In this document: in pieces, positions 37,536 to 49,262 of the stretch | Position numbering within the stretch: position 1 is the stretch's first letter | How the letters are laid out: every line of letters starts with the position of its first letter | Assembly: GCA_024401695.1 (NCBI GenBank) | Contig: JAKSKN010000008.1 | Coordinates: forward strand, 2,871-66,870 | DNA from: Bacteroidales bacterium | GTDB lineage: Bacteria; Bacteroidota; Bacteroidia; Bacteroidales; UBA932 | Reading direction: 5' to 3' | DNA: 64,000 bases | Translations under genes and position numbers: made by a program | Notes under the pieces: model-generated | Databases searched by the model: none | Told to the model about the DNA's origin: nothing | What the model saw: the letters and a program-made list of their open reading frames with translations, nothing else

Positions 37536-39446
37536 CTATCTTACAATGATTACTGCGCCGTCGTTCACGGCAATCTGCAGAGGTTTCCTGAACTTGAGCA
37601 CTTCTGAAGTCTCTCCCTTCACCGTTGCTATGACACGGGCTTCAGCGCCACCCAGACGGGCAACGATGGCCTTTACGTCGAGATTCAGAGGAGCCTCGAC
37701 CGCATTGACCGCACCTACATACCAGGTGTCGCCATTGCGCCTGGCAATGACGGCGTTTTCACCCGGCGTACCGTCGAGATACCTCGTCTCATCCCAGGTC
37801 GTAGGCACCTCGGTAAGGAAATCAAGCGCCAGCTTTGGTGCATCCGTAAGGTTGTTCGGGGCAAGCGCGAAATTCTGGATCGGGTTCTGGAAAATGACTG
37901 CCGTCGCGAGCGAAAAGGCATCCGTCGTGCGGCGGATGTTACCGCGGACACGTCCGCGGGCATCAGGCTGGCCGTTCAGTCGGTCCATCCTCTCATTGAG
38001 GAACGATCCGCCATACTCCATACAGCCGACGGCATTGCGGATGAAAGGATGCAGCGACGCGCACTGAGCCTCGATATCACAGTCGTACTGACTGAAAATA
38101 AGATTTTCGGAGGCACGCACGGCTTCGCTTCCGACATAGTTCGGATACATTCTCTCCCAGCCGCGAGGCAAGGTGCAGCCGTGGAAGATGACCATAAGGC
38201 CGTGGTCGTCGGCATCGCTGAGGATGCTCTCGTAGTGACGCATCGTCTCCTGCTTGTCGCCGCCGAAGAAATCAACCTTGATGCCCTTCACGCCCACCTT
38301 CTCAAGCCAGGCCATCTCACGCTTGCGCAGAATCGGATCGCTCATTATGTTGATCGGGCCCTGCTCGATGTCATTCCACCAGCCGCTTGAAGAATACCAA
38401 AGCAGGACGTCAATGCCCTTTGAGTTGGCATAATTCACGAGATCGGGAATCCTTTCACGGGTTATGTTCACGTCCCACCAGTTGTCCACAAGGACATACT
38501 TGAAGCCCATTGCCGCTGACAGGTCGATGTATTTGACCTGGTCATCGAAATTGATGGAGTTGTCCTGCCAGAGAATCCAGCTCCAGGTTCCCTTGCCGAA
38601 ACTGTATTTGTGGGAGCTCTCATAACGGGGTTCGACCACATCAAAAGGAATCGTGGTCTCGACTATCGGGGCCAGGTCAAGTCCTACCGTGATGGTCCTC
38701 CACGGAGTCGCGCCCGGAAGGGCGAACGCAGGCTCGACCGTGCCGTTGCCATTGTTCTCCTCCGGCATAGGGAATTCAAGCTTGTAACCCTTGCCTTCCG
38801 TGTAGTCGGAAAGGCGCGAGCCGCAGTAGCGACTGTCAACGCCGGTTTCGCTGACAAGCACCCAGCCGGCCCCGCCCACCTTGAACAGGCAAGGGAAAGT
38901 GTATCCGTGGCCGAACTGTGACTTTTCGGCCATCGGGGCGTCAAGCTTGTAATACTCCTCATAGCTCGGCTTGGTGCGCTTCCAGCCCACCATCGCATCG
39001 CTCTGCGGGCACATATACGTAGTCGTACCCTCCGGGAAATTGAACCAGGTCTGCTCGTCGAGCACCCTCACGCTGCCCGTCTCCCCCGTTTTCGGAAGCA
39101 CGTAGCGGAAGGCGACATCGTTGTTGAAAACATAAAACTCGACAGCCAGGCCGTGCGGCTGCTTGTCAACCCCGTATTTCAAGAATGCGTGCGTAGCTTC
39201 CTTGCAGACGCTGCCGACCTTGATGCGGTCAAGCTCATACGATACAGTCGTACGTTCCTGTGTGAGTTCGAATTCACTCAGACCGGTAAAATCCGCGCAG
39301 TTGGTCCTGATGCCGAAATGCGACGGCGCCACGAGCTGCTGGTCATCATAGGAAATGCTGTAGACAGGACCGTCCACGGTAACTTTCAGGCGGGAATCAG
39401 GGCTTGCAATCACAACGGCAAGCAGGGCGGAAATCAAAAAGTTCAT
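37536..39446 (-). CDS. Glycoside hydrolase family 97
   Basis: SPDSRL N-terminus, GIKVDFF, FHGCTLPRGWERMYPN..GSEAV, WDETRYLDG. Confidence 0.92.
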   Translation of the reverse strand: MNFLISALLAVVIASPDSRLKVTVDGPVYSISYDDQQLVAPSHFGIRTNCADFTGLSEFELTQERTTVSYELDRIKVGSVCKEATHAFLKYGVDKQPHGLAVEFYVFNNDVAFRYVLPKTGETGSVRVLDEQTWFNFPEGTTTYMCPQSDAMVGWKRTKPSYEEYYKLDAPMAEKSQFGHGYTFPCLFKVGGAGWVLVSETGVDSRYCGSRLSDYTEGKGYKLEFPMPEENNGNGTVEPAFALPGATPWRTITVGLDLAPIVETTIPFDVVEPRYESSHKYSFGKGTWSWILWQDNSINFDDQVKYIDLSAAMGFKYVLVDNWWDVNITRERIPDLVNYANSKGIDVLLWYSSSGWWNDIEQGPINIMSDPILRKREMAWLEKVGVKGIKVDFFGGDKQETMRHYESILSDADDHGLMVIFHGCTLPRGWERMYPNYVGSEAVRASENLIFSQYDCDIEAQCASLHPFIRNAVGCMEYGGSFLNERMDRLNGQPDARGRVRGNIRRTTDAFSLATAVIFQNPIQNFALAPNNLTDAPKLALDFLTEVPTTWDETRYLDGTPGENAVIARRNGDTWYVGAVNAVEAPLNLDVKAIVARLGGAEARVIATVKGETSEVLKFRKPLQIAVNDGAVIIVR

Positions 39447-39919
39447 CGTTCAGTGTATTTATCGGCGCCCTTGTGCCAGAAGCGGTGGGTGATATCCTCC
39501 CGGTGAAGGTAAAGGCGCTGGTTGGTTGTCCGTTCATTCAACGGGCCGTATTCGGCAATATATGGCCCGACTTTTACATAATCGAACGCCTCGTAGAGCT
39601 CAGGCTCCACTTCTTCGCGTCCGGAATAGATCGCCCGCGCGATGAACGGGTGTCTGGTGCGGAGGTGCTCCGCAATGGCAAGCACCGCCGCAGGGTCCTT
39701 CCCCTCTCCCAGCAGCAGGAAGCAGTTCACGCCGAAATTGGCTGCAATCAGGGCGTCGACGACGCCAGGCGTCAGTTCTTCGCCTATGTCCTGCCTCAGG
39801 AATGGGGAATGGCATCCTACGCAGGAACCCTGGCAGTTGGATATCTCAACTGCCAGGGTCACTTTGTCCGGGATCTCCTCGAGGACGATATTTGTCATCC
39901 TCGGAACGTACTTAAGCAT
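39443..39919 (-). CDS. nrdG: Anaerobic ribonucleotide reductase activating enzyme (radical SAM)
   Basis: CQGSCVGCHS (CxxxCxxC), KVGPY, TTNQR; directly after nrdD. Confidence 0.9.
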   Translation of the reverse strand: MLKYVPRMTNIVLEEIPDKVTLAVEISNCQGSCVGCHSPFLRQDIGEELTPGVVDALIAANFGVNCFLLLGEGKDPAAVLAIAEHLRTRHPFIARAIYSGREEVEPELYEAFDYVKVGPYIAEYGPLNERTTNQRLYLHREDITHRFWHKGADKYTER

Positions 39920-42107
39920 CTTTCGGAGTGTAATAGCGGTGCTGGGCTTCAATCTGTCTAGGCTCTGCGAACGAAGACACTCTCTTAAGGTAACCGATCA
40001 CCCTGGTGAGGTAATCGATGTCCGTGCTGCCGCACTTAGGGCACTCGGTGTGGGTATCCTTGCTGATGTGGCCGCACTTGTTGCAGACGGTATTGCGGCA
40101 GTTGAATGTGAAGTAATTCGTGCCGTAATGCGCCGCAACGTTGAGAAGTTGCCTGTACTGCTCCTTGGAAAGATGCTCCTGGAGGTTCATATGGAGGGCG
40201 GATCCGCCGTCGAGGTACTTGACGAAGTCCTCACCGTGAAGTTTGAACTTGTCGATCATGCTGACCTCGGTATCTTCAGGATTATAGAAGTACGAGCTGT
40301 AGAGGTTGTGCTTGTCGGATACGAAATAACCGTCCTTCTTGTCCCATTTGTAGTTTTTGGCGGCAAGATTCTCGGCAGGCACGAACTCGGTGTTGAACAT
40401 TGCATCAGGGGTCCTGTCCTTGCGGTTCGCAATGTTGATGGTCTCGAGAATGGTGTTGACGAATGCGCCGTACTCCGGATTAGGAGACACCTCGAGTCCG
40501 AGGAATTCGGCGGCTTCGGTAAGTCCATTCACACCTACAGTCAGATACTGGCGTCTCATATCGATGAAACCGGCCTTGTATACATCAAGCATATCGGCGT
40601 TGAGGAAGTCCTTGATGATCTCGTTGAACGCAATCTGATACTTGTGGACACGTTCTGTCATCTCCCTGAGGTCCTTGTCGATGTAATTGACGTACAGGTC
40701 ATCCTTGTCGTAGAAGTTTGACACAGGATTGAGCGGTTTGCCGGCTTCAAGATTGACACCGCGGCGCTCGAGGAAGTAGCGGCGCACTGAGTCCTGAATA
40801 ATGCGGTTAAGATTGATGGTCATAACGGATTTGGAACCGGTTGAAACCGACGCAGTACCCATCGAATACTGGTGAGTGGTGTGGTTGTGGTCCACATCTT
40901 CCATATCCTTGAGGCTGTTGCGCAGACGGCAGCAGCTTGAGAGTGAATCCGGGCTGTTTGAAAGGTAGCAGAAGAAGCTGTGGCCCTTTGCCCACATCTC
41001 CGACGTGAAATCGGCATACGCCTGGTCGGCGAAGTCGTCTCCACCGTTGGTAAGGAGGGCCATGGTCTCTACCGGGAAGGTAAGGATGTAGTTCCTGCGT
41101 TCCTCGTTGAACCAGTTCATGAAATGCCTCTGGAGCCAGTCGAGGGTCTCCCAGATTGGGGCTGACCCGTCAGGGAAACGGAACTCTCCGAAGACGCCTT
41201 CGAAATACGGCTTGTCGAAATAGCTGATGTTCCAGAACACGGTCTGATAGCCGCGATTGCCCGCAGGCATGTTCATCGAGTGGACTACCTGCTGGAAATA
41301 GTTGTCGATGACCTTGGAGAGAGTGCGCTTCTTGACATTGTTCTCCACAACGTCGTCGAGGTGCTCGATATAGTCGTCGCCGTAGTCCTTGCGGATGAAG
41401 TAGTCGAGATACATAAGGAACTCCGGAGTGGCAACGGCACCCATGAACTGCGAAGAAACGGAATACACGAGGTTGATGAACTCTCCGCAGAAGCTCTTGA
41501 GATCGGTAGGGGCTATGGACACGCCGCCCAGTTCCTTGAGACCGCTGACGAGGAAAGGATACATCGTGATGGCGACACAGTAAGGGAAGCCCGGAGTGCC
41601 GCTTTCATCGTGCTTGTAGAGGACGTGCGAATTGAGGTCGGCAAGATACTGGTCTGCGAGCGCGCGGCCGTAGAGCGTCTTGATCTTGTCGCACATGATG
41701 TAGCGGTTCTGCTTGATGTTGTTCTCCTTGTAGAGTTCGTTACCGAGCGTGACGATGTTCTTCCTGGTCACATTTGCATTGGCATCGAACTTCGAGCCCG
41801 TGGCGGCGTTCTTGGCCACGATGTAGTCCTTGATGAAGTCGCGCTTCTTGCGGAGGTCAAGGTCGGCGTCGAACTTGTCGATGTAGGCATGGGCCACCTT
41901 CTTGTTGATGCCCATCAGAGCATCCTCCACCTGACGGCGGATTTCCTGACTGGTGATACCCTCGTAGATGTAAAGGTTGTTGATAATGGAGACTACTATC
42001 GCGTCATCGCAATACTGCCCCGCCGATTTGTAGGCCTCGTGGATACCACGGGCCAGTTTGGCTTTGTCGTACTCTTCAAGCGAGCCGTTGGTTTTACGTA
42101 CGTCCAT
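39912..42107 (-). CDS. nrdD: Class III anaerobic ribonucleoside-triphosphate reductase with ATP cone
   Basis: ATP cone, PYCVA, SSCCRL, CNKCG..CPKC, RVIGYL glycyl-radical motif. Confidence 0.95.
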   Translation of the reverse strand: MDVRKTNGSLEEYDKAKLARGIHEAYKSAGQYCDDAIVVSIINNLYIYEGITSQEIRRQVEDALMGINKKVAHAYIDKFDADLDLRKKRDFIKDYIVAKNAATGSKFDANANVTRKNIVTLGNELYKENNIKQNRYIMCDKIKTLYGRALADQYLADLNSHVLYKHDESGTPGFPYCVAITMYPFLVSGLKELGGVSIAPTDLKSFCGEFINLVYSVSSQFMGAVATPEFLMYLDYFIRKDYGDDYIEHLDDVVENNVKKRTLSKVIDNYFQQVVHSMNMPAGNRGYQTVFWNISYFDKPYFEGVFGEFRFPDGSAPIWETLDWLQRHFMNWFNEERRNYILTFPVETMALLTNGGDDFADQAYADFTSEMWAKGHSFFCYLSNSPDSLSSCCRLRNSLKDMEDVDHNHTTHQYSMGTASVSTGSKSVMTINLNRIIQDSVRRYFLERRGVNLEAGKPLNPVSNFYDKDDLYVNYIDKDLREMTERVHKYQIAFNEIIKDFLNADMLDVYKAGFIDMRRQYLTVGVNGLTEAAEFLGLEVSPNPEYGAFVNTILETINIANRKDRTPDAMFNTEFVPAENLAAKNYKWDKKDGYFVSDKHNLYSSYFYNPEDTEVSMIDKFKLHGEDFVKYLDGGSALHMNLQEHLSKEQYRQLLNVAAHYGTNYFTFNCRNTVCNKCGHISKDTHTECPKCGSTDIDYLTRVIGYLKRVSSFAEPRQIEAQHRYYTPKDA

Positions 42108-42241: not shown

Positions 42242-43360
42242 CTATATCGCCTTCCTGTACGCCCTGCGCCGCATAAAAGGCTCGGTTTCGTACTGTTCGA
42301 AGAGAGACTGGACCTTGACATTGTCTTCAAGCTGAGGATTGAGTATCATCCTTTTTATGCCGCGCTTCAGGCAGTTTTCGTGCAGATACTTGAACATCAG
42401 CACATTCGCGCCCTTCCCCTGATATTCCGGCAGGACGCCTATCATCAGGTCCTCGATGGTGTCGTTGTGGCGTAGCGCCCGGAGGATACGCAGGAATCCG
42501 AACGGGAAGAGCTTGCCCTTCGACTTCTTCACCGCCTTCGAGAGGGACGGCACACAGAAAGTGAAGCCGACAGGATTGTCGTCCTCGTCCAGACAGATCG
42601 CCACGAAGTCCGGGATCAGAATCGGGACATAAGTCCTGAGATACCTGTCTATCTGCCTGTCGGAAAGGGGCGTGAACTGGAACAGCGGTGCAAAGGACTC
42701 GTTGTACATATGGAATATCGACAGTCCGTACTTCTCATTCATCTCCGATACGCTTCTGCACTTGGCAACCTTCAGGCCATAGCGCTTCCCTATCAGGTCG
42801 GCATACTGGAACATAGGCGGAAGATCGGATGTCACCTTCACGATACGCTGCGTCCAGTCGACATCCTTCTCGAATCCCAATTTCTGGAGCATGGAGTCAT
42901 AATAAGGATAGTTGTACAGGCAGGTGAAAGGGCTGAGCTTTTCGTAGCCCTCCACAAGCAGGCCTTCCTTGTCCATGTCCGTGAACCCCAACGGACCCTT
43001 GATGAAAGTGCATCCGCGTGCGCGGCCCCATTCCACCACCTTGTCCATCAACGCGCGCAGCACTTCCTCGTCCTCAATGAAATCAAGCCATCCGAATCGC
43101 ACTATCTTCTCGCCCCAGAGTTCATTCGCCTTCCTGTTGATGATTGCCGCCACGCGGCCTGCGACGCGACCGTCCTTGTATGCAAGGTACAATTCAGCCT
43201 CGCAGTACTCGAAGGCACCGTTGGTCTTGGGATTCAGCGTGTCATATTCGTCCCCCTCGAGGGCGGGAACCCAGTTTTCGCAATTCTTGTACAGCTCATA
43301 AGGGAATTTAACGAAAGCGCGGAGAAGCGGCTTCGAGTCAACAATTCTGGTCGTAATCAT
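42242..43360 (-). CDS. Double-GNAT acyltransferase of the bacterial ceramide synthase (bCerS)/YghO-like family
   Basis: FPYELYK..WVP, LAYKDGRVAGRVAAIIN, RFGWLDF, GPLGFTD, YNYPYY, IGVLPEYQGKG. Confidence 0.75.
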   Translation of the reverse strand: MITTRIVDSKPLLRAFVKFPYELYKNCENWVPALEGDEYDTLNPKTNGAFEYCEAELYLAYKDGRVAGRVAAIINRKANELWGEKIVRFGWLDFIEDEEVLRALMDKVVEWGRARGCTFIKGPLGFTDMDKEGLLVEGYEKLSPFTCLYNYPYYDSMLQKLGFEKDVDWTQRIVKVTSDLPPMFQYADLIGKRYGLKVAKCRSVSEMNEKYGLSIFHMYNESFAPLFQFTPLSDRQIDRYLRTYVPILIPDFVAICLDEDDNPVGFTFCVPSLSKAVKKSKGKLFPFGFLRILRALRHNDTIEDLMIGVLPEYQGKGANVLMFKYLHENCLKRGIKRMILNPQLEDNVKVQSLFEQYETEPFMRRRAYRKAI

Positions 43361-43459
43361 TCTGTCCTGGAAGTTTTAGTCTTTACAAATTTAGATATTT
43401 TTCTTATATTTGAAGAATAAAACCAATTAGAAAAACTTCAAGACAAAGGAGAAGAGATT

Positions 43460-44953
43460 ATGGGAAACTACTTTTATGACATGCTCCCTTCGGAGGAGAT
43501 CGCACAGTTGAAGTATATTCCGACCGTGCCCGAATTTTTAACCTGGATCGAGGAAAAGTGGGCTGATCTGCCAGCAGTATCCGATACGAACGTCACCTAC
43601 ACCTATTCGCAGATGTGCAGCCGCATCGCACGCCGCCGCGCCTTCCTTGAAGACTGCGGTCTCTCAAAGGGAGACAAGGTCGCCATCTGGGAGAAGACGT
43701 CCATCGATGCGGTCGAGATGTTCCTTGCGGCCCTTTCTGCCGGTTACATCGGGATCATCCTTCCTACCGGCCTTCCGGAACAGGCAGTCATCGGCTGCTG
43801 TATGAAATTCGGCGTCAAGCTGCTCGCCGTCCGCGACGAGTTCGCCGGAAAAGTGGCCGCAGCCCCCTGCAAACTTGTGTCATCTTCATCAATGGCAGAC
43901 AGAGAAGCTCCGTCAGCGGCTGTCAGCAAGGATGACCCTGCAGCAATATTCTTTACCGGAGGCACCACAGGCGCTCCTAAGGGAGCCATCCTGCCTCATC
44001 GCGCGCTTATGCGCGGAAGCTTCAACGGATGCTTCGCCCCGGGCAGCCAGCTGGGACATCACCGTATGGTCTGCCTGCTTCCGCTCAGCCACGTGTTCGG
44101 ACTTGTCCGCTCAACCCTTTCCGCATTCTATACGGGATCGCTCTGGTATCCGGCCGAAGATATGAAAGCCACCATCGGCAAGCTGCCGGTCATCAAGCCT
44201 ACCCTCCTCGTACTTGTTCCGGGCCTGTGTGACATCCTGTACGGACTCACCAGGATGTATGGCCCGCAATTTCTGGGCGGCGAGCTCAAGACGATCATTG
44301 CCGGAGCGGCAAACGTTCCGCCGCGCCTTATCTCCGAATTCGACAAGCTCGGCATCGCCCTCCTTGCCGGCTATGGAATGACAGAAGGCGCCAACCTCAC
44401 TTCCGGCAACAAGGACGTCAAGGACAAACCGACTTCAGTCGGCAAGATATACCCGGAGCAGGAAGTGAAGATCGTCGACGGCGAGATCTGGTTCCGCGGC
44501 GACAACGTATTCCTCGGATACTACGGAGACCCTGAGGCCACCAGTGCCACCCTTACGGAAGACGGCTGGGTCAGGACCGGCGACCTCGGACGCCTCGATG
44601 AAGAGGGATACCTCTATATCACCGGCAGAATCAAGAACATCATCGTCCTCGCCAACGGCGAAAACGTCTCACCGGAAGAGATCGAGGAGCCGTTCTACAA
44701 ATGCGCCGCGCTCAAGGACTGCCTCGTGAAGGAAGTCGATTCCGACGGAGAGAAGGTCATCGGTATCGAGATCTTCCCTCAGATGCCCGCATTCGAGGGC
44801 AAGCCTTGGGAACAGGTCGAGGCCTTTTTCAATGACCTCGTCAACAAGGTCAATGCAGAACTTCCAAGCACCCACCGGATCCAGAAGGTGATCGTCCGTC
44901 ACGAAGACTTCAAGCGCACCGGTTCACTCAAAGTTTCACGAAACCAGAATTAA
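43460..44953 (+). CDS. AMP-binding long-chain acyl-CoA/acyl-ACP synthetase
   Basis: FTGGTTGAPKG, GYGMTE, RTGDLG, GRIKNII..NGENVSPEEIE. Confidence 0.9.
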   Translation: MGNYFYDMLPSEEIAQLKYIPTVPEFLTWIEEKWADLPAVSDTNVTYTYSQMCSRIARRRAFLEDCGLSKGDKVAIWEKTSIDAVEMFLAALSAGYIGIILPTGLPEQAVIGCCMKFGVKLLAVRDEFAGKVAAAPCKLVSSSSMADREAPSAAVSKDDPAAIFFTGGTTGAPKGAILPHRALMRGSFNGCFAPGSQLGHHRMVCLLPLSHVFGLVRSTLSAFYTGSLWYPAEDMKATIGKLPVIKPTLLVLVPGLCDILYGLTRMYGPQFLGGELKTIIAGAANVPPRLISEFDKLGIALLAGYGMTEGANLTSGNKDVKDKPTSVGKIYPEQEVKIVDGEIWFRGDNVFLGYYGDPEATSATLTEDGWVRTGDLGRLDEEGYLYITGRIKNIIVLANGENVSPEEIEEPFYKCAALKDCLVKEVDSDGEKVIGIEIFPQMPAFEGKPWEQVEAFFNDLVNKVNAELPSTHRIQKVIVRHEDFKRTGSLKVSRNQN

Positions 44954-44956
44954 GAT

Positions 44957-45199
44957 ATGACACGCGAAGAAATACTCGACAATCTCAAGGAGATAGTTCT
45001 TACAATCAAGCCAAAGCTCGACTTTTCAAACATCACCCCGGACTCATCCCTCGTGAAGGACCTTGGCATAGACTCGCTTTCAATGCTTCTGCTTTCACTT
45101 GCAATCGAGAACAAGTTCGGATTCCAGTTCGACTCCCAGGCTAAATTCAACACCATCGGCGAAGTCATCGACTACATCGAAAAGGTCCTGAACAAATAG
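44957..45199 (+). CDS. Acyl carrier protein
   Basis: LGIDSLS phosphopantetheine site, 80 aa, acidic. Confidence 0.92.
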   Translation: MTREEILDNLKEIVLTIKPKLDFSNITPDSSLVKDLGIDSLSMLLLSLAIENKFGFQFDSQAKFNTIGEVIDYIEKVLNK

Positions 45200-45216
45200 C
45201 TTTACACGAACGCAAG

Positions 45217-45253
45217 AACGGGCGGCTTCCCACAAGGAAGACCGCCCGTTTTT
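45217..45253. terminator. Intrinsic terminator after ACP
   Basis: AACGGGCGG...CCGCCCGTTTTT. Confidence 0.8.
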
Positions 45254-45294
45254 ACGACAAAGCAATTACAACAGACTAATACTACAGATTGCAG

Positions 45295-46005
45295 TCATAT
45301 ATGCAGACGGAGTATGGAGGCGCCGTGAAGAATGGCGACGGCGTGCGCCAGAGCGGTGTTTCCGCGGGTGAAGCGTTTGTCGGAAGCGCCTATGAGGACA
45401 GGATGTCCGAGGGCTGCAAGTTCCTCGAGCCTGTATAATATCTCCCAGCACTGCTCCGGGGTCTTGGCGAATCCCAGCCCCGGATCAAGTATCCAGTCTG
45501 AGATGCCTGCAGCGGAGGCACGTTTTTCAAAGTCCCTGAAATAATTGACGAGAGCGGGCACGACCCCTTCCGGATAGTCGGACAGCCCGTCCATAGTGGT
45601 CGGGCAACCTCTTTTGTGCATCGCGACATACGGCAGATGCAGTCTGCCGGCGGCACGGAGCATCGCGGGGTCATCCTCCCCAGACGAGATGTCATTGACG
45701 ATGAATTCTCCCAGGACCGCATAGGCACGGAGGACAATCTCCGATCTGGTGGTATCGATTGAAATCTGTGGCCGTGACGGCATCGGGGCCACAGCCCGCA
45801 ATGCGGGTTCAAGCCGCTGCCACTCCTCTTCAAGGCTGACCGTAGCGGCACCGGGACGGGTTGACACGGCGCCCAGATCAATGATGGACGCTCCGGAATC
45901 CTGCATCGAGCGTATGCGTGCCGGGACATCGGCCGCCACGACCCTGCTGGACTCGATGAAAGAGTCCGGCGTAAGATTCAGGATGCCCATCAACCTGACC
46001 ATCAT
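45295..46005 (-). CDS. folP: Dihydropteroate synthase (compact)
   Basis: MGILNLTPDSF, STRPGA, SIDT, VNDIS, LDPGLGFAK, LIGASDK. Confidence 0.9.
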   Translation of the reverse strand: MMVRLMGILNLTPDSFIESSRVVAADVPARIRSMQDSGASIIDLGAVSTRPGAATVSLEEEWQRLEPALRAVAPMPSRPQISIDTTRSEIVLRAYAVLGEFIVNDISSGEDDPAMLRAAGRLHLPYVAMHKRGCPTTMDGLSDYPEGVVPALVNYFRDFEKRASAAGISDWILDPGLGFAKTPEQCWEILYRLEELAALGHPVLIGASDKRFTRGNTALAHAVAILHGASILRLHI

Positions 46006-46949
46006 TCGACGTGTTCTTTAAGGAATCTGCGCACGACAGCGGTATATTCCGCCGGGTGGTCAGGATAACTGTATGCGTGCCTTGACCCGCTTACAATCCA
46101 GATTTCACGATATCCGTTGACCTTTGCGTCATAATTCACCCGGGACATTGAAGTCGGCGTGATCTGGTCGGCATCGCCGTGGATGAACAGCATAGGCTTG
46201 GAGCACTTTGCAACCTGGCGCGAAGGGACATCGTCAAGGACTGACCATCCGAAACGGCGTTTTACCTGAGTCTCAATATTCTCAAGAATCGGCCCGGCAG
46301 GCAGCTTGCGCTCGGTAAGCAGGGTGTCCGCGACATCCCACAGAGAAGAGAATCCGCAGTCCGCAATGAATCCGCGCACATAGTCGGGAGTGCCTTCTCC
46401 GCCGGCATTCATAATGGAAGCCGCACCCATCGATATGCCGTGATACACCTGCAGGGTGTCGCCAAAGACTTCGTGGGCGATTGCAGACCAGTCGAGTACA
46501 TCAAAGCGGTCGAGCCAGCCCATCTGTACGGCAGCCCCTTCGCTCAGGCCGAGGCGTCTCAGGTCCGGCAGCAGCACATTGTATCCAATGGAATCCCGGA
46601 ACATCCTGGCGATATGCATCATATTCATATTGTTCGCGCCATAGCCGTGGATGATCACAGCCGTCCTGCGGGAAGGCACCGGTGCTGCAGCATAGTTGGC
46701 GTGAAGCTTGAATCCATCGCGCACGATGGTCGTGTCGTGCATCTGCCCGCTCAGAAACATCCGGTCCACCCAGGCGGTCAGACCCGGAACCCTCTTTTCC
46801 ATCTCTTTCTTCGACCTGGCGAAGGCCATAGGGTCATAGTTCCTTTCCAATCCGCGCCGGACTATGATGGAGCCGGCGATACCGCAGCTTTCAAAGACAA
46901 GCAGGGCTGAAGCCAGGACGACGGCAATAATAATTCGTTTATTCATCAA
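46002..46949 (-). CDS. Membrane-anchored/lipoprotein alpha/beta hydrolase
   Basis: IIHGY, HGISMGA, FIHGDAD, GSRHA. Confidence 0.88.
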   Translation of the reverse strand: MMNKRIIIAVVLASALLVFESCGIAGSIIVRRGLERNYDPMAFARSKKEMEKRVPGLTAWVDRMFLSGQMHDTTIVRDGFKLHANYAAAPVPSRRTAVIIHGYGANNMNMMHIARMFRDSIGYNVLLPDLRRLGLSEGAAVQMGWLDRFDVLDWSAIAHEVFGDTLQVYHGISMGAASIMNAGGEGTPDYVRGFIADCGFSSLWDVADTLLTERKLPAGPILENIETQVKRRFGWSVLDDVPSRQVAKCSKPMLFIHGDADQITPTSMSRVNYDAKVNGYREIWIVSGSRHAYSYPDHPAEYTAVVRRFLKEHVE

Positions 46950-47595
46950 GTATCTCGGAAATATGTTCAGAAAGTTCTTTCATTGAGTGGTAAAGCACGT
47001 CAGCTCCTTCAGCAAGCAGCATCTCGTCCGGAAGCGGGCCTGTGTTCACGGCAACCACATAGCAGCCGGCAGCGTGCCCTGACCGGACTCCCAGCGGCGC
47101 ATTTTCGATGACGACGGCCTCGGATGCGGGGACCCCTGCCCTCTCCATCCCTTTCAGATATGGTTCAGGGTCGGGTTTCCCCTTGACGACATCGGCTGCC
47201 GTAACCATCCATTCCTTGCGGAAAAGTCCGCCATAATTTTCGTCTATGCGGTCCAGCATATGCTTCTGACCCGACCCTGTCACGACTATGGCAGTCGCAC
47301 CGAAGTCGCGGACGGCCTTGACGGCATCCCAGGCGCCAGGCATTGCCGGAGCTTCCGGCATGGCATCGAAATATCTGCATTTGCGTTCATACAGACGCGG
47401 CCACTCCTTCTCCCCTCTTTCAACACCCAGAAAAAGACAGATGGAGGACTTGCCGGTACGTCCCTCGTTCTCATAAATACGGGATTCAGGGAAGTCAAGC
47501 CCCTCGTCCAGCATCGTCTGCCGCCACGCCTTGGCGTGCCTCGGCATAGAGTCGAACAGGACTCCGTCCATATCAAACATCACAAGTCTCTTCAT
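46939..47595 (-). CDS. HAD-family phosphatase (beta-PGM-like)
   Basis: FDMDGVLFDS, VTGS, GKPDPEPY, IENAPLG; start at ATG 47595, not 47919. Confidence 0.9.
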   Translation of the reverse strand: MKRLVMFDMDGVLFDSMPRHAKAWRQTMLDEGLDFPESRIYENEGRTGKSSICLFLGVERGEKEWPRLYERKCRYFDAMPEAPAMPGAWDAVKAVRDFGATAIVVTGSGQKHMLDRIDENYGGLFRKEWMVTAADVVKGKPDPEPYLKGMERAGVPASEAVVIENAPLGVRSGHAAGCYVVAVNTGPLPDEMLLAEGADVLYHSMKELSEHISEILDE

Positions 47596-47613
47596 TATCG
47601 TTTGATTTAAGCG

Positions 47614-47630
47614 CAAAATTAGTAAATTTG
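47614..47630. promoter_or_regulatory. Back-to-back divergent -7 boxes
   Basis: TAATTTTG (minus, 47621-47614) and TAAATTTG (plus, 47623-47630). Confidence 0.55.
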
Positions 47631-47644
47631 TGTAAAAGACGCGT

Positions 47645-48163
47645 ATGAAAAAGATCTTGTTACTTGCAACAGTGCTTCTCCTGTCCTTCACCCTGAACGC
47701 ACAGGATTTCTCGAAATACCTCGGCAAGGTTTCCGGCACCCCGTTCATCGTCATCAGCAAGGCTGACTTCCAGCTGACGCTGGTCGGCGCCGACGGACAA
47801 GCCATAAAGCAGTACGGCTGCGCCGTCGCCAGGAACCTCGGTCCGAAGGAGAAGCGCGGCGACCACAAGACCCCGGAAGGGACCTTCAAGATCAACGAGC
47901 TGCTGAATTCCAAGAGCATTCCTCACGATTTCCACGACGGGAAAGGCCCTATCATCGGCGCGTACGGTCCCTGGTTCCTCAGGCTTGACGTACCGGGATT
48001 CCGCGACATAGGCATACACGGCACCCATCTTCCCGAATCAATCGGCTCCCGCGCCACGGAAGGCTGCATACGCCTCAGGAACGAAGACATACTGGACCTC
48101 AAATCACGGATCAAGCTTGGAACCGAAGTCATCATTCTGCCGGAAGGCGTGAGCGCATTATGA
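47645..48163 (+). CDS. L,D-transpeptidase (YkuD family)
   Basis: GDHKTPEG, IGIHGT...SRATEGCIRL; signal peptide. Confidence 0.92.
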   Translation: MKKILLLATVLLLSFTLNAQDFSKYLGKVSGTPFIVISKADFQLTLVGADGQAIKQYGCAVARNLGPKEKRGDHKTPEGTFKINELLNSKSIPHDFHDGKGPIIGAYGPWFLRLDVPGFRDIGIHGTHLPESIGSRATEGCIRLRNEDILDLKSRIKLGTEVIILPEGVSAL

Positions 48164-48200
48164 TTCTTGTAACATTTTTATAACCAATAATACTGATACT

Positions 48201-48662
48201 ATGGCATCTATTACCGATTTCATCCTCAAACAGGCCACTGCACAGACCAGCGGTATCAACATCCCTTCAAATCTCAAGGACCAGGTTCTCGGCGGACTTT
48301 CAAACTCCATCATCGGAAGCCTCACCCAGACTGCAGCCCAGCCAAGCGGAATTGACCAGATCAAGGGACTTCTCACCGGCAAGACATCCGCCGCAGCAAG
48401 CCCTATCACCGGCCTCGCTACAAACCTCTTTGCCAACAACATCGTCAAGAAGCTCGGCCTCGACGCCAACCTCGGCAGCACACTCTCAGGCCTCATTCCT
48501 TCCATAATGGGCAAACTCTCCGGATTCCTCAAGGACCAGGACGGCGACGGTGACGTGGACATCAACGACATCATCATCTCACTCAAGGGCGGAAACTCAC
48601 AGAAGAAGAGCTCCCTCCTCGGTACCGCAACCTCGATCCTCGGCGGTATCCTGAGAAAATAA
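48201..48662 (+). CDS. Gly/Ser-rich hypothetical protein (DUF937-like) with DxDxDG motif
   Basis: DQDGDGDVDIND EF-hand-like loop. Confidence 0.7.
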   Translation: MASITDFILKQATAQTSGINIPSNLKDQVLGGLSNSIIGSLTQTAAQPSGIDQIKGLLTGKTSAAASPITGLATNLFANNIVKKLGLDANLGSTLSGLIPSIMGKLSGFLKDQDGDGDVDINDIIISLKGGNSQKKSSLLGTATSILGGILRK

Positions 48663-48665
48663 CAT

Positions 48666-49262
48666 ATGCTTGCTGTCAATATCTTTGACATAGCCGACAA
48701 CTTTGACGCCACTGCGGGATTCCGGGACATCAGCCCCCTTCTTCCGCAGTGGCGTCTTGATAAGTCGATGTCATACAGGAACGACATCGACAGGTTTCTC
48801 TGTGCAAAGTCATTTCTTATCCTTGAAGAAATGCTCCGCGTGAACTTCGGGCTCGTTCATTGCCCTGAATTCTCATACGGAAGCCACGGGAAGCCGTATT
48901 TCCGGGAATATCCCGGAGTGTTCTTCAACATCAGCCACTGTCACCGTGGCATTGCCTGCGCAGTTTCCGACAGAGCTGTAGGGATAGACATTGAAGATAT
49001 CCAGTACGACGACGAGCTTGCCAGGATGATCCTCAATCAGGATGAGCTTGCCGCCGTCAGATGTTCGGATGATCCAGGTACGGAATTCACCAGGCTATGG
49101 ACCCTCAAGGAAAGTTTTCTTAAACTGAACGGGGAGGGCCTCCGTGACAATATGAAAGATATCCTTTCCGGGACGGAAGGGATATGCTTCAAGACCGGAA
49201 GCAACAGTGCGGCCGGTTATGTCTGTTCAACGGCAGTCTGCCGCCAGTCACAGGGGGAATGA
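48666..49262 (+). CDS. Sfp-type 4'-phosphopantetheinyl transferase
   Basis: HGKPY, FNISH, VGIDIE, WTLKESFLK. Confidence 0.92.
   Translation: MLAVNIFDIADNFDATAGFRDISPLLPQWRLDKSMSYRNDIDRFLCAKSFLILEEMLRVNFGLVHCPEFSYGSHGKPYFREYPGVFFNISHCHRGIACAVSDRAVGIDIEDIQYDDELARMILNQDELAAVRCSDDPGTEFTRLWTLKESFLKLNGEGLRDNMKDILSGTEGICFKTGSNSAAGYVCSTAVCRQSQGE

Follow-up and report, generated by a model that had tools for sequence, protein, structure and literature searches.

Sphingolipids and sulfonolipids of Bacteroidales act on host immunity and metabolism, and the source of their amide-linked chain is poorly defined. A stretch of 64,000 nucleotides from a Bacteroidales bacterium (contig JAKSKN010000008.1; the whole stretch is referred to as the window hereafter) raises the question of whether such a chain may be drawn from a private supply. 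It carries the gene of a 372-aa GNAT protein, P0001 (42242-43360), and, facing it, a gene pair for an adenylate-forming ligase and an acyl carrier protein (ACP). The P0001-type GNAT, the ligase and the ACP are together called the trio. A first-pass annotation, made from the letters of the window, had described P0001 as a double GNAT resembling bacterial ceramide synthase (bCerS), and had proposed an ACP-dependent acylation route to a sphingolipid or another amide lipid, with a 4'-phosphopantetheinyl transferase (PPTase) encoded nearby. The open reading frames (ORFs) found here match the coordinates of all four genes exactly. The source genome is a Candidatus Cryptobacteroides-like Bacteroidales metagenome-assembled genome (MAG) from gut or rumen, 97% complete. 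The answer that we favour, and that we consider reasonably probable, is that P0001 is a bCerS/YghO-family N-acyltransferase of a distinct Bacteroidales subclade, that it works in a three-gene module with the ligase and a dedicated ACP, and that the three proteins make a ceramide-type amide lipid.

The first point to be settled is the family of P0001. Among the curated families of Pfam and NCBIfam none names this protein, the sole Pfam match being a C-terminal GNAT domain, and a sequence search of the PDB gave no useful match. Its own family comprises 5,652 representative clusters, is conserved over the entire length, and is present in 168 of the 201 sampled Bacteroidales genomes, often as at least two paralogues. 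Within these clusters the only name found was 'Protein YghO', on one metagenomic member. P0001 aligns end to end with YghO of E. coli BL21 (ECD_02850; residues 1-372 versus 7-380, 27% identity, E 1e-45), and alignment of the family profile with YghO by hhalign gave a probability of 100% (E 2.6e-53). The AlphaFold2 model, for which 96 diverse homologues served as input, has a pLDDT of 97.3 and a pTM of 0.93, and the structures ranked highest by Foldseek, namely 5kf1, 2wpw, 7q3a and MshD (E down to 2.6e-15), are tandem-GNAT proteins. A QGKGA pantetheine/pyrophosphate-binding motif can be read in the sequence at residues 314-318. YghO ('aca') is the E. coli homologue of the Caulobacter ceramide synthase CC_1154, and it stands at the head of the BL21(DE3) cluster, whose order is yghO-aasR-epi-acpR-spt (PMC9386255). 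The roles of bCerS, CerR and serine palmitoyltransferase (Spt) are established in Caulobacter, and those of cerS and cerR in B. fragilis (PMC11087976; bioRxiv 10.1101/2023.05.23.541633). When homologues were sought with YghO as the query, the hits came from Enterobacterales, Pseudomonas and Rhodothermales and from no other group; such homologues occur widely in Serratia, Citrobacter, Erwinia, Rosenbergiella and some Pseudomonas.

The neighbourhoods of the Bacteroidales family members were also informative. In at least 13 of the 58 Spt-positive genomes, such a member is the immediate neighbour of canonical Spt, and in a 14th it is 2.4 kb away; where the two adjoin, the GNAT comes after Spt in all genomes but one. 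In the annotated Spt-GNAT operons, a CerR-type NAD-dependent epimerase gene comes next, and some of these operons continue with PAP2 or CDP-alcohol transferase genes. In one locus, a bCerS-family GNAT and a CerR-type epimerase are fused into a 706-aa protein directly downstream of canonical Spt (L107:7472-9592), which fits acylation and reduction in close succession. Since the homology to YghO, the fold, and the Spt/CerR context agree, the description of P0001 as a ceramide-synthase-like double GNAT is correct at the family level: it is a true member of the bCerS/YghO family with a tandem-GNAT fold. Another protein of this genome, with a PF13480 domain (344 aa, C5:58225-59259 = L002:8225-9259), was considered as the true bCerS, with P0001 unrelated. 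It is FemAB-like, and this candidate was dropped because P0001 aligns end to end with YghO. The PF13480 protein is the only true one in the genome, and its gene is located between a Kdo transferase gene and a NeuB/aminotransferase/GNAT sugar-modification cluster; it bears no relation to the locus described here.

Is the grouping of this GNAT with a ligase and an ACP particular to the window? We examined 80 loci from named genome records, all of which carry close relatives of P0001. The trio was found in about 70 of them, in three arrangements, while the other neighbours differ between loci. The order ligase>ACP>GNAT, with gaps of roughly 20-45 nt, occurs in about 48 loci; the divergent form of the window, ACP<ligase GNAT>, occurs in about 20; and GNAT>ligase>ACP occurs in 2. 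The ligase gene adjoins the ACP gene in all arrangements. When the tree is rooted with YghO, the GNATs linked to a ligase and an ACP all group together (SH-aLRT 100, stem 0.69); this clade, referred to as type A hereafter, is nested among Spt/CerR-adjacent Bacteroidales sequences. Comparison with a 90%-identical relative (L015) gave dN/dS values of 0.10 for the GNAT, 0.07 for the ligase and 0.16 for the ACP, with 0.11 for the neighbouring FolP; the trio is under purifying selection in this genome. Fusions of ACP and GNAT (of the Rosetta-stone kind) were not found among the longer homologues, whose extra domains are MsrA and DGC, the GNAT-CerR fusion being the only informative one. The grouping of the three genes is far beyond chance, and the functional link between the ligase/ACP pair and the GNAT that had been proposed for the window is upheld by a trio kept in three arrangements with GNATs of a single clade.

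The ligase and the ACP themselves have a less familiar appearance. The best NCBIfam matches of the ligase are fatty-acid-CoA ligases, far under their cut-offs, and among solved structures it comes closest to acyl/aryl-CoA ligases (E about 1e-33). Compared with E. coli AasR, it shows 24% identity in a gapped alignment (E 5e-16; 497 versus 562 aa), a generic likeness of the ANL superfamily, and the similarity of the ACP to AcpR is limited to 29 residues around the Ser site (E 3e-7). The ACP equivalog models score the ACP under their cut-offs, so that it is divergent from the housekeeping AcpP; three other ACP-like ORFs occur elsewhere in the genome. AasR and AcpR feed Spt in Rhodobacteria (PMC9386255), and the first-pass annotation had likened the pair of the window to this supply. 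The logic would be the same here; judged by their sequences, however, the ligase and the ACP are analogues and not orthologues of AasR and AcpR, and the operon order points to the N-acyltransferase. The ACP gene starts 3 nt after the ligase stop codon, and this spacing, together with the invariable adjacency of the two genes, suggests that the ligase loads this ACP.

Orthologues of the ligase are rare in the order (5 of 201 genomes). In three other Bacteroidales families, an orthologous ligase-ACP pair (51-65% identity) was found beside a gene that encodes a PlsC-type acyltransferase (PF01553; about 210 aa), and none of these neighbourhoods includes an oxoamine synthase (L118:6960-12417, L119:6985-9363 and L120:7945-10365). 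These loci may represent a different acyl-ACP-dependent lipid module. Because the partner in them is a PlsC-type enzyme and not an oxoamine synthase, the constant partner of the ligase-ACP pair is an acyltransferase, which would place the acyl-ACP at N-acylation rather than at Spt. By gene order, too, the acyl-ACP from the ligase and ACP most likely serves the N-acyltransferase rather than Spt. One of the PlsC-linked loci also contains LolA-like and MMPL genes.

How closely, then, is the trio tied to sphingolipid synthesis? Ten of the 80 loci carry a trio abutting a convergent SDR<Spt pair, in which canonical Spt stands with a short-chain reductase (SDR), and in 27 of 35 further trio genomes a canonical-type Spt is encoded at another site. 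Canonical Spt occurs in about 80% of the trio-bearing genomes, as compared with 58 of the 201 Bacteroidales genomes order-wide. Within a set of 19 genomes of the genus, Spt was found in 5 of the 6 genomes with a type-A GNAT and in 3 of the 13 without one (one-sided Fisher p 0.024, a value that ignores phylogeny and includes many incomplete MAGs).

Under the favoured reading, the ligase would adenylate a free fatty acid and then move the acyl group to the phosphopantetheine thiol of the small ACP. The GNAT would take the acyl group from acyl-ACP and attach the chain to the amine of a long-chain amino-alcohol base, giving an amide lipid of the ceramide type. The use of acyl-ACP by the GNAT and the identities of the acyl chain and the acceptor are predictions from sequence and gene context. 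In most relatives, the base would come from canonical Spt and an SDR, so that a (keto)dihydroceramide would be the product there. For the present genome, the probable acceptor is to be sought among three: a sphingoid base obtained by salvage, capnine or 3-ketocapnine supplied by a SulA-SDR pair, or the product of a fusion protein, the last two being described below.

Several observations weigh against this reading. The Caulobacter bCerS was reportedly assayed with acyl-CoA. Our family reference was YghO of E. coli BL21, and not the characterised CCNA_01212 or BF9343_4218. The ligase has no close characterised relative among the NCBIfam models and solved structures. Nine type-A genomes carry no ligase gene adjacent to the GNAT: four have it elsewhere, and five have none. 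Three of these five (L029, L037 and L041) form one subclade, so that the coupling of GNAT and ligase is common and not obligate. The mean isoelectric point is 7.0 in the ligase/ACP-linked clade and 8.2 in its Spt-linked relatives; since the clade is not more basic, a global-charge signature of ACP docking is not seen. The last observation concerns Spt itself. The canonical Bacteroidota Spt model, NCBIfam NF047600, has a cut-off of 640 bits, and Spt proteins of relatives score 596-720; the best scores in the genome of the window were 316 (Kbl), 297 (the fusion protein) and 283 bits (SulA). The search of the genome for spt, on which the first-pass annotation had staked its proposal beforehand, thus ended with no canonical spt. 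Because of this absence, the ceramide reading is not directly transferable to this genome: the ACP-dependent amide-lipid route stands as the best reading, and the ceramide product is not carried over with it.

The absence has a counterpart in gene order. In one genus member (G014), spt is located just upstream of an SDR gene; in the present genome, the SDR orthologue (69% identity) is preceded by a flavoprotein gene in the place of spt, on an unbroken contig. Spt was likewise not found in L015, L016 and L017, the nearest three relatives within the locus set, whose assemblies are smaller. This genome has lost canonical Spt and has kept the module under purifying selection.

Candidates for the acceptor were sought among the other genes of the genome. 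One contig (C2) encodes a SulA/CFAT-type oxoamine synthase of 421 aa, after which comes an SDR gene (L095:6751-8803). It matches PDB 7U7H, which we take to be the Alistipes SulA, with E 2e-167, and a cysteate-C-fatty acyltransferase with E 6e-161. It also keeps the Lys by which SulA is distinguished from Spt (QxYAKSLP; PMC9304779), and the genome can probably make the sulfonolipid base capnine despite the absence of canonical Spt. Most genus genomes have an oxoamine synthase of similar score and size. Another contig (C5) encodes the fusion protein, which joins a ligase, an ACP and an oxoamine synthase in 1,107 aa (L096:7313-10636) and may be a self-contained long-chain aminoketone synthase. 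Homologues of the fusion (53-95% identity) occur widely among the Bacteroidales and Clostridia of gut and rumen, each isolated amid housekeeping genes, which are those for PEPCK, radical SAM and RecG in one case and for gyrase in another. The idea that this fusion accounts for the extra PPTase gene of the window found no support, as neither a PPTase nor a GNAT gene was found near the fusion homologues. In addition, a second bCerS paralogue (contig C45, L117:7866-9047) groups with the Spt-SDR-adjacent GNATs of other genomes.

The genus relatives (G001-G018) bear on the capnine option. Their Spt-negative members keep one or two bCerS-family paralogues, and 9 of these 10 members carry a SulA-like oxoamine synthase; these paralogues are candidates for a capnine N-acyltransferase. 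SulA was not seen adjacent to any bCerS-family gene, and in the present genome it is on a different contig from the trio. The sulfonolipid literature that was searched names no capnine N-acyltransferase. Among capnine or ketocapnine, the fusion product and a salvaged sphingoid base, the adjacency evidence favours none. Only tentatively do we consider that the module runs a route independent of Spt in this Spt-less lineage. It would then serve either as the sulfonolipid N-acyltransferase, acting on capnine or 3-ketocapnine with a private acyl-ACP supply, or in the re-acylation of scavenged sphingoid bases with scavenged fatty acids. The scavenging version, if true, would be a bacterial sphingolipid salvage pathway, with the host, the diet or neighbouring microbes as sources.

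The evidence above can also be arranged in other ways. The ligase and the ACP might feed the condensing enzyme (Spt or SulA), with the GNAT using acyl-CoA or housekeeping acyl-ACP and being merely co-regulated. This division of labour has a direct precedent, since AasR and AcpR feed the condensing enzyme in Caulobacter and E. coli B. The BL21 locus, in which yghO is divergent from a fatty acyl-AMP ligase (FAAL) gene that is followed by the epimerase gene, acpR and spt (PMC9386255), the preference of the Alistipes SulA for acyl-ACP (PMC9304779), and the occurrence of Spt in most trio genomes are all consistent with it. We nevertheless regard it as unlikely: the closely spaced order ligase>ACP>GNAT is the commonest one, in about 48 loci with gaps of roughly 20-45 nt; Spt and its SDR, where they are nearby, form a separate convergent unit; and the trio persists here without Spt and with SulA on another contig. 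Moreover, orthologous ligase-ACP pairs adjoin PlsC-type acyltransferases and not oxoamine synthases, and the two proteins are not orthologues of AasR and AcpR. Alternatively, the type-A clade may have left ceramide synthesis altogether, the module making a lipid without a sphingoid base, such as an N-acyl amino acid, an acylated polyamine or some other amide. The long stem branch of the clade, the retention of the trio under selection in an Spt-less genome, and the excess of bCerS-family carriers (168 of the 201 Bacteroidales genomes, with Spt in only 58) would agree with this; yet the strong association between trio and Spt, seen in the genus as well as among trio genomes at large, and the ten trio loci that physically adjoin Spt-SDR make it quite improbable.

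The remaining arrangement takes the whole region from 42242 to 49262, the PPTase gene included, as one biosynthetic cluster in which the PPTase is the dedicated activator of the ACP. Every ACP needs a PPTase, and the distance is short: 3.47 kb separate the ACP stop codon from the PPTase start. However, this intervening region holds genes for FolP, an alpha/beta hydrolase, a HAD pyrophosphatase and a YkuD transpeptidase, along with one ORF without assignment, on mixed strands, and a terminator follows the ACP gene. Its hairpin has a folding energy of -29.9 kcal/mol (z -8.09), and none of 200 shuffled sequences was equally stable. None of the 80 related loci has the extra PPTase gene. In L015, the 90%-identical relative, only 12 nt separate the genes for the orf153 product and a 2-hydroxyacid dehydrogenase, too few for it to fit between them, and the gene corresponds to an insertion or deletion of about 590 nt. 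One PPTase, its open frame spanning roughly 210-260 aa, is common to all 19 genus genomes (C13:7926-8123 in the present genome); a second one, the window copy, occurs only in the present genome, and the trio-bearing members G007, G010, G014 and G016 have the genus-wide one only. The one-cluster arrangement, very improbable in our view, is already contradicted by these comparative data, and the place in the system that had been given to the PPTase falls with it: the window copy is an accessory insertion and does not belong to the module.

The features of the locus are listed in Table 1. In the spacer between the GNAT and ligase genes, a pattern search found TAnnTTTG-type boxes, namely TAAATTTG at 43386-43393 on the minus strand and TATATTTG at 43405-43412 on the plus strand. 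Since this Bacteroidetes -7 motif is not enriched across the window (23 found versus 18.6 expected), the boxes can be taken as putative promoters only. The GNAT gene is adjoined on its other side by nrdD (anaerobic ribonucleotide reductase) and a putative nrdG activase gene (39443-42107). These genes also occur near the GNAT gene in several relatives (L015, L017-L020, L023 and L040), which is probably a conserved housekeeping synteny.

Table 1 Features of the GNAT-ligase-ACP locus and the accessory PPTase gene (positions in the window)
Feature	Position	Strand	Evidence
bCerS/YghO-family tandem-GNAT N-acyltransferase of the type A (ligase/ACP-linked) clade, 372 aa	42242-43360	-	Pfam Acetyltransf_1, residues 248-355
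Divergent GNAT/ligase intergenic region, 99 bp, AT-rich	43361-43459		Candidate Bacteroidetes -7 boxes, one per strand
Adenylate-forming ligase, 497 aa, predicted to load the adjacent ACP	43460-44953	+	PF00501 E 8.5e-55, AMP-binding_C_3
Dedicated stand-alone ACP, 80 aa, pI 4.6	44957-45199	+	PF00550 E 6.5e-9, GIDSLS phosphopantetheine site
Intrinsic terminator closing the ligase-ACP unit	45214-45254	+	GC-rich hairpin, UUUUU tail
Extra Sfp-type 4'-phosphopantetheinyl transferase, 198 aa	48666-49262	+	PF01648 E 5.9e-14

A bCerS-family clade coupled to a private ligase and ACP, with the pairing conserved in relatives, has no earlier account in the literature searched; when full texts were searched for ceramide synthase combined with acyl-ACP in Bacteroid*, a Caulobacter paper was the sole result. 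That such a clade is so firmly bound to a ligase and an ACP of its own suggests that the N-acyl chain is drawn from a separate acyl pool, possibly one of exogenous fatty acids. The first-pass annotation had set its proposal against the general assumption that Bacteroidales use acyl-CoA. That assumption was already contested, acyl-ACP being the donor for SulA in Alistipes (Radka et al. 2022, PMC9304779), and the trio adds genomic weight to acyl-ACP, not acyl-CoA, as the working donor in Bacteroidota lipid synthesis. The present genome, Spt-less and SulA-positive, offers a natural test case for whether the bCerS family performs the N-acyltransferase step of sulfonolipid synthesis or serves a salvage route.

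Three known systems can be compared with the locus. One is the sulfonolipid pathway (SulA/CFAT and CapC; PMC9304779, PMC13692747): the genome has a SulA homologue with an SDR, the pathway needs an N-acyltransferase, and SulA uses acyl-ACP. Within the genus, however, the trio tracks Spt and not SulA. Another is the ceramide synthase of Caulobacter (CCNA_01212 = CC_1154), with its counterparts YghO in E. coli B and BF9343_4218 in B. fragilis. P0001 shares with this family its full length, as compared with YghO, and its tandem-GNAT fold; Bacteroidales relatives stand in Spt-GNAT-CerR operons, and N-acylation of a long-chain base is the chemistry to be expected. It differs in belonging to a separate clade that is tied genetically to its own ligase and ACP, in a genome without canonical Spt, and in its predicted donor, acyl-ACP, whereas the Caulobacter enzyme is said to have been assayed with acyl-CoA. 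The last is the AasR-AcpR-Spt system of Rhodobacteria (PMC9386255), in which a specialised ACP receives its acyl group from a specialised ligase for sphingolipid synthesis, as is predicted here, and the yghO/aasR locus of E. coli BL21 (L122:1282-6885) even has the divergent GNAT/ligase geometry of the window. In contrast to the 562-aa FAAL AasR, the ligase of the window is a 497-aa ANL enzyme, and its ACP is not an AcpR orthologue. In the 80 related loci, the ACP gene of the window type is followed by the GNAT gene or a terminator and never by spt, so that the step served by this private acyl-ACP is probably N-acylation.

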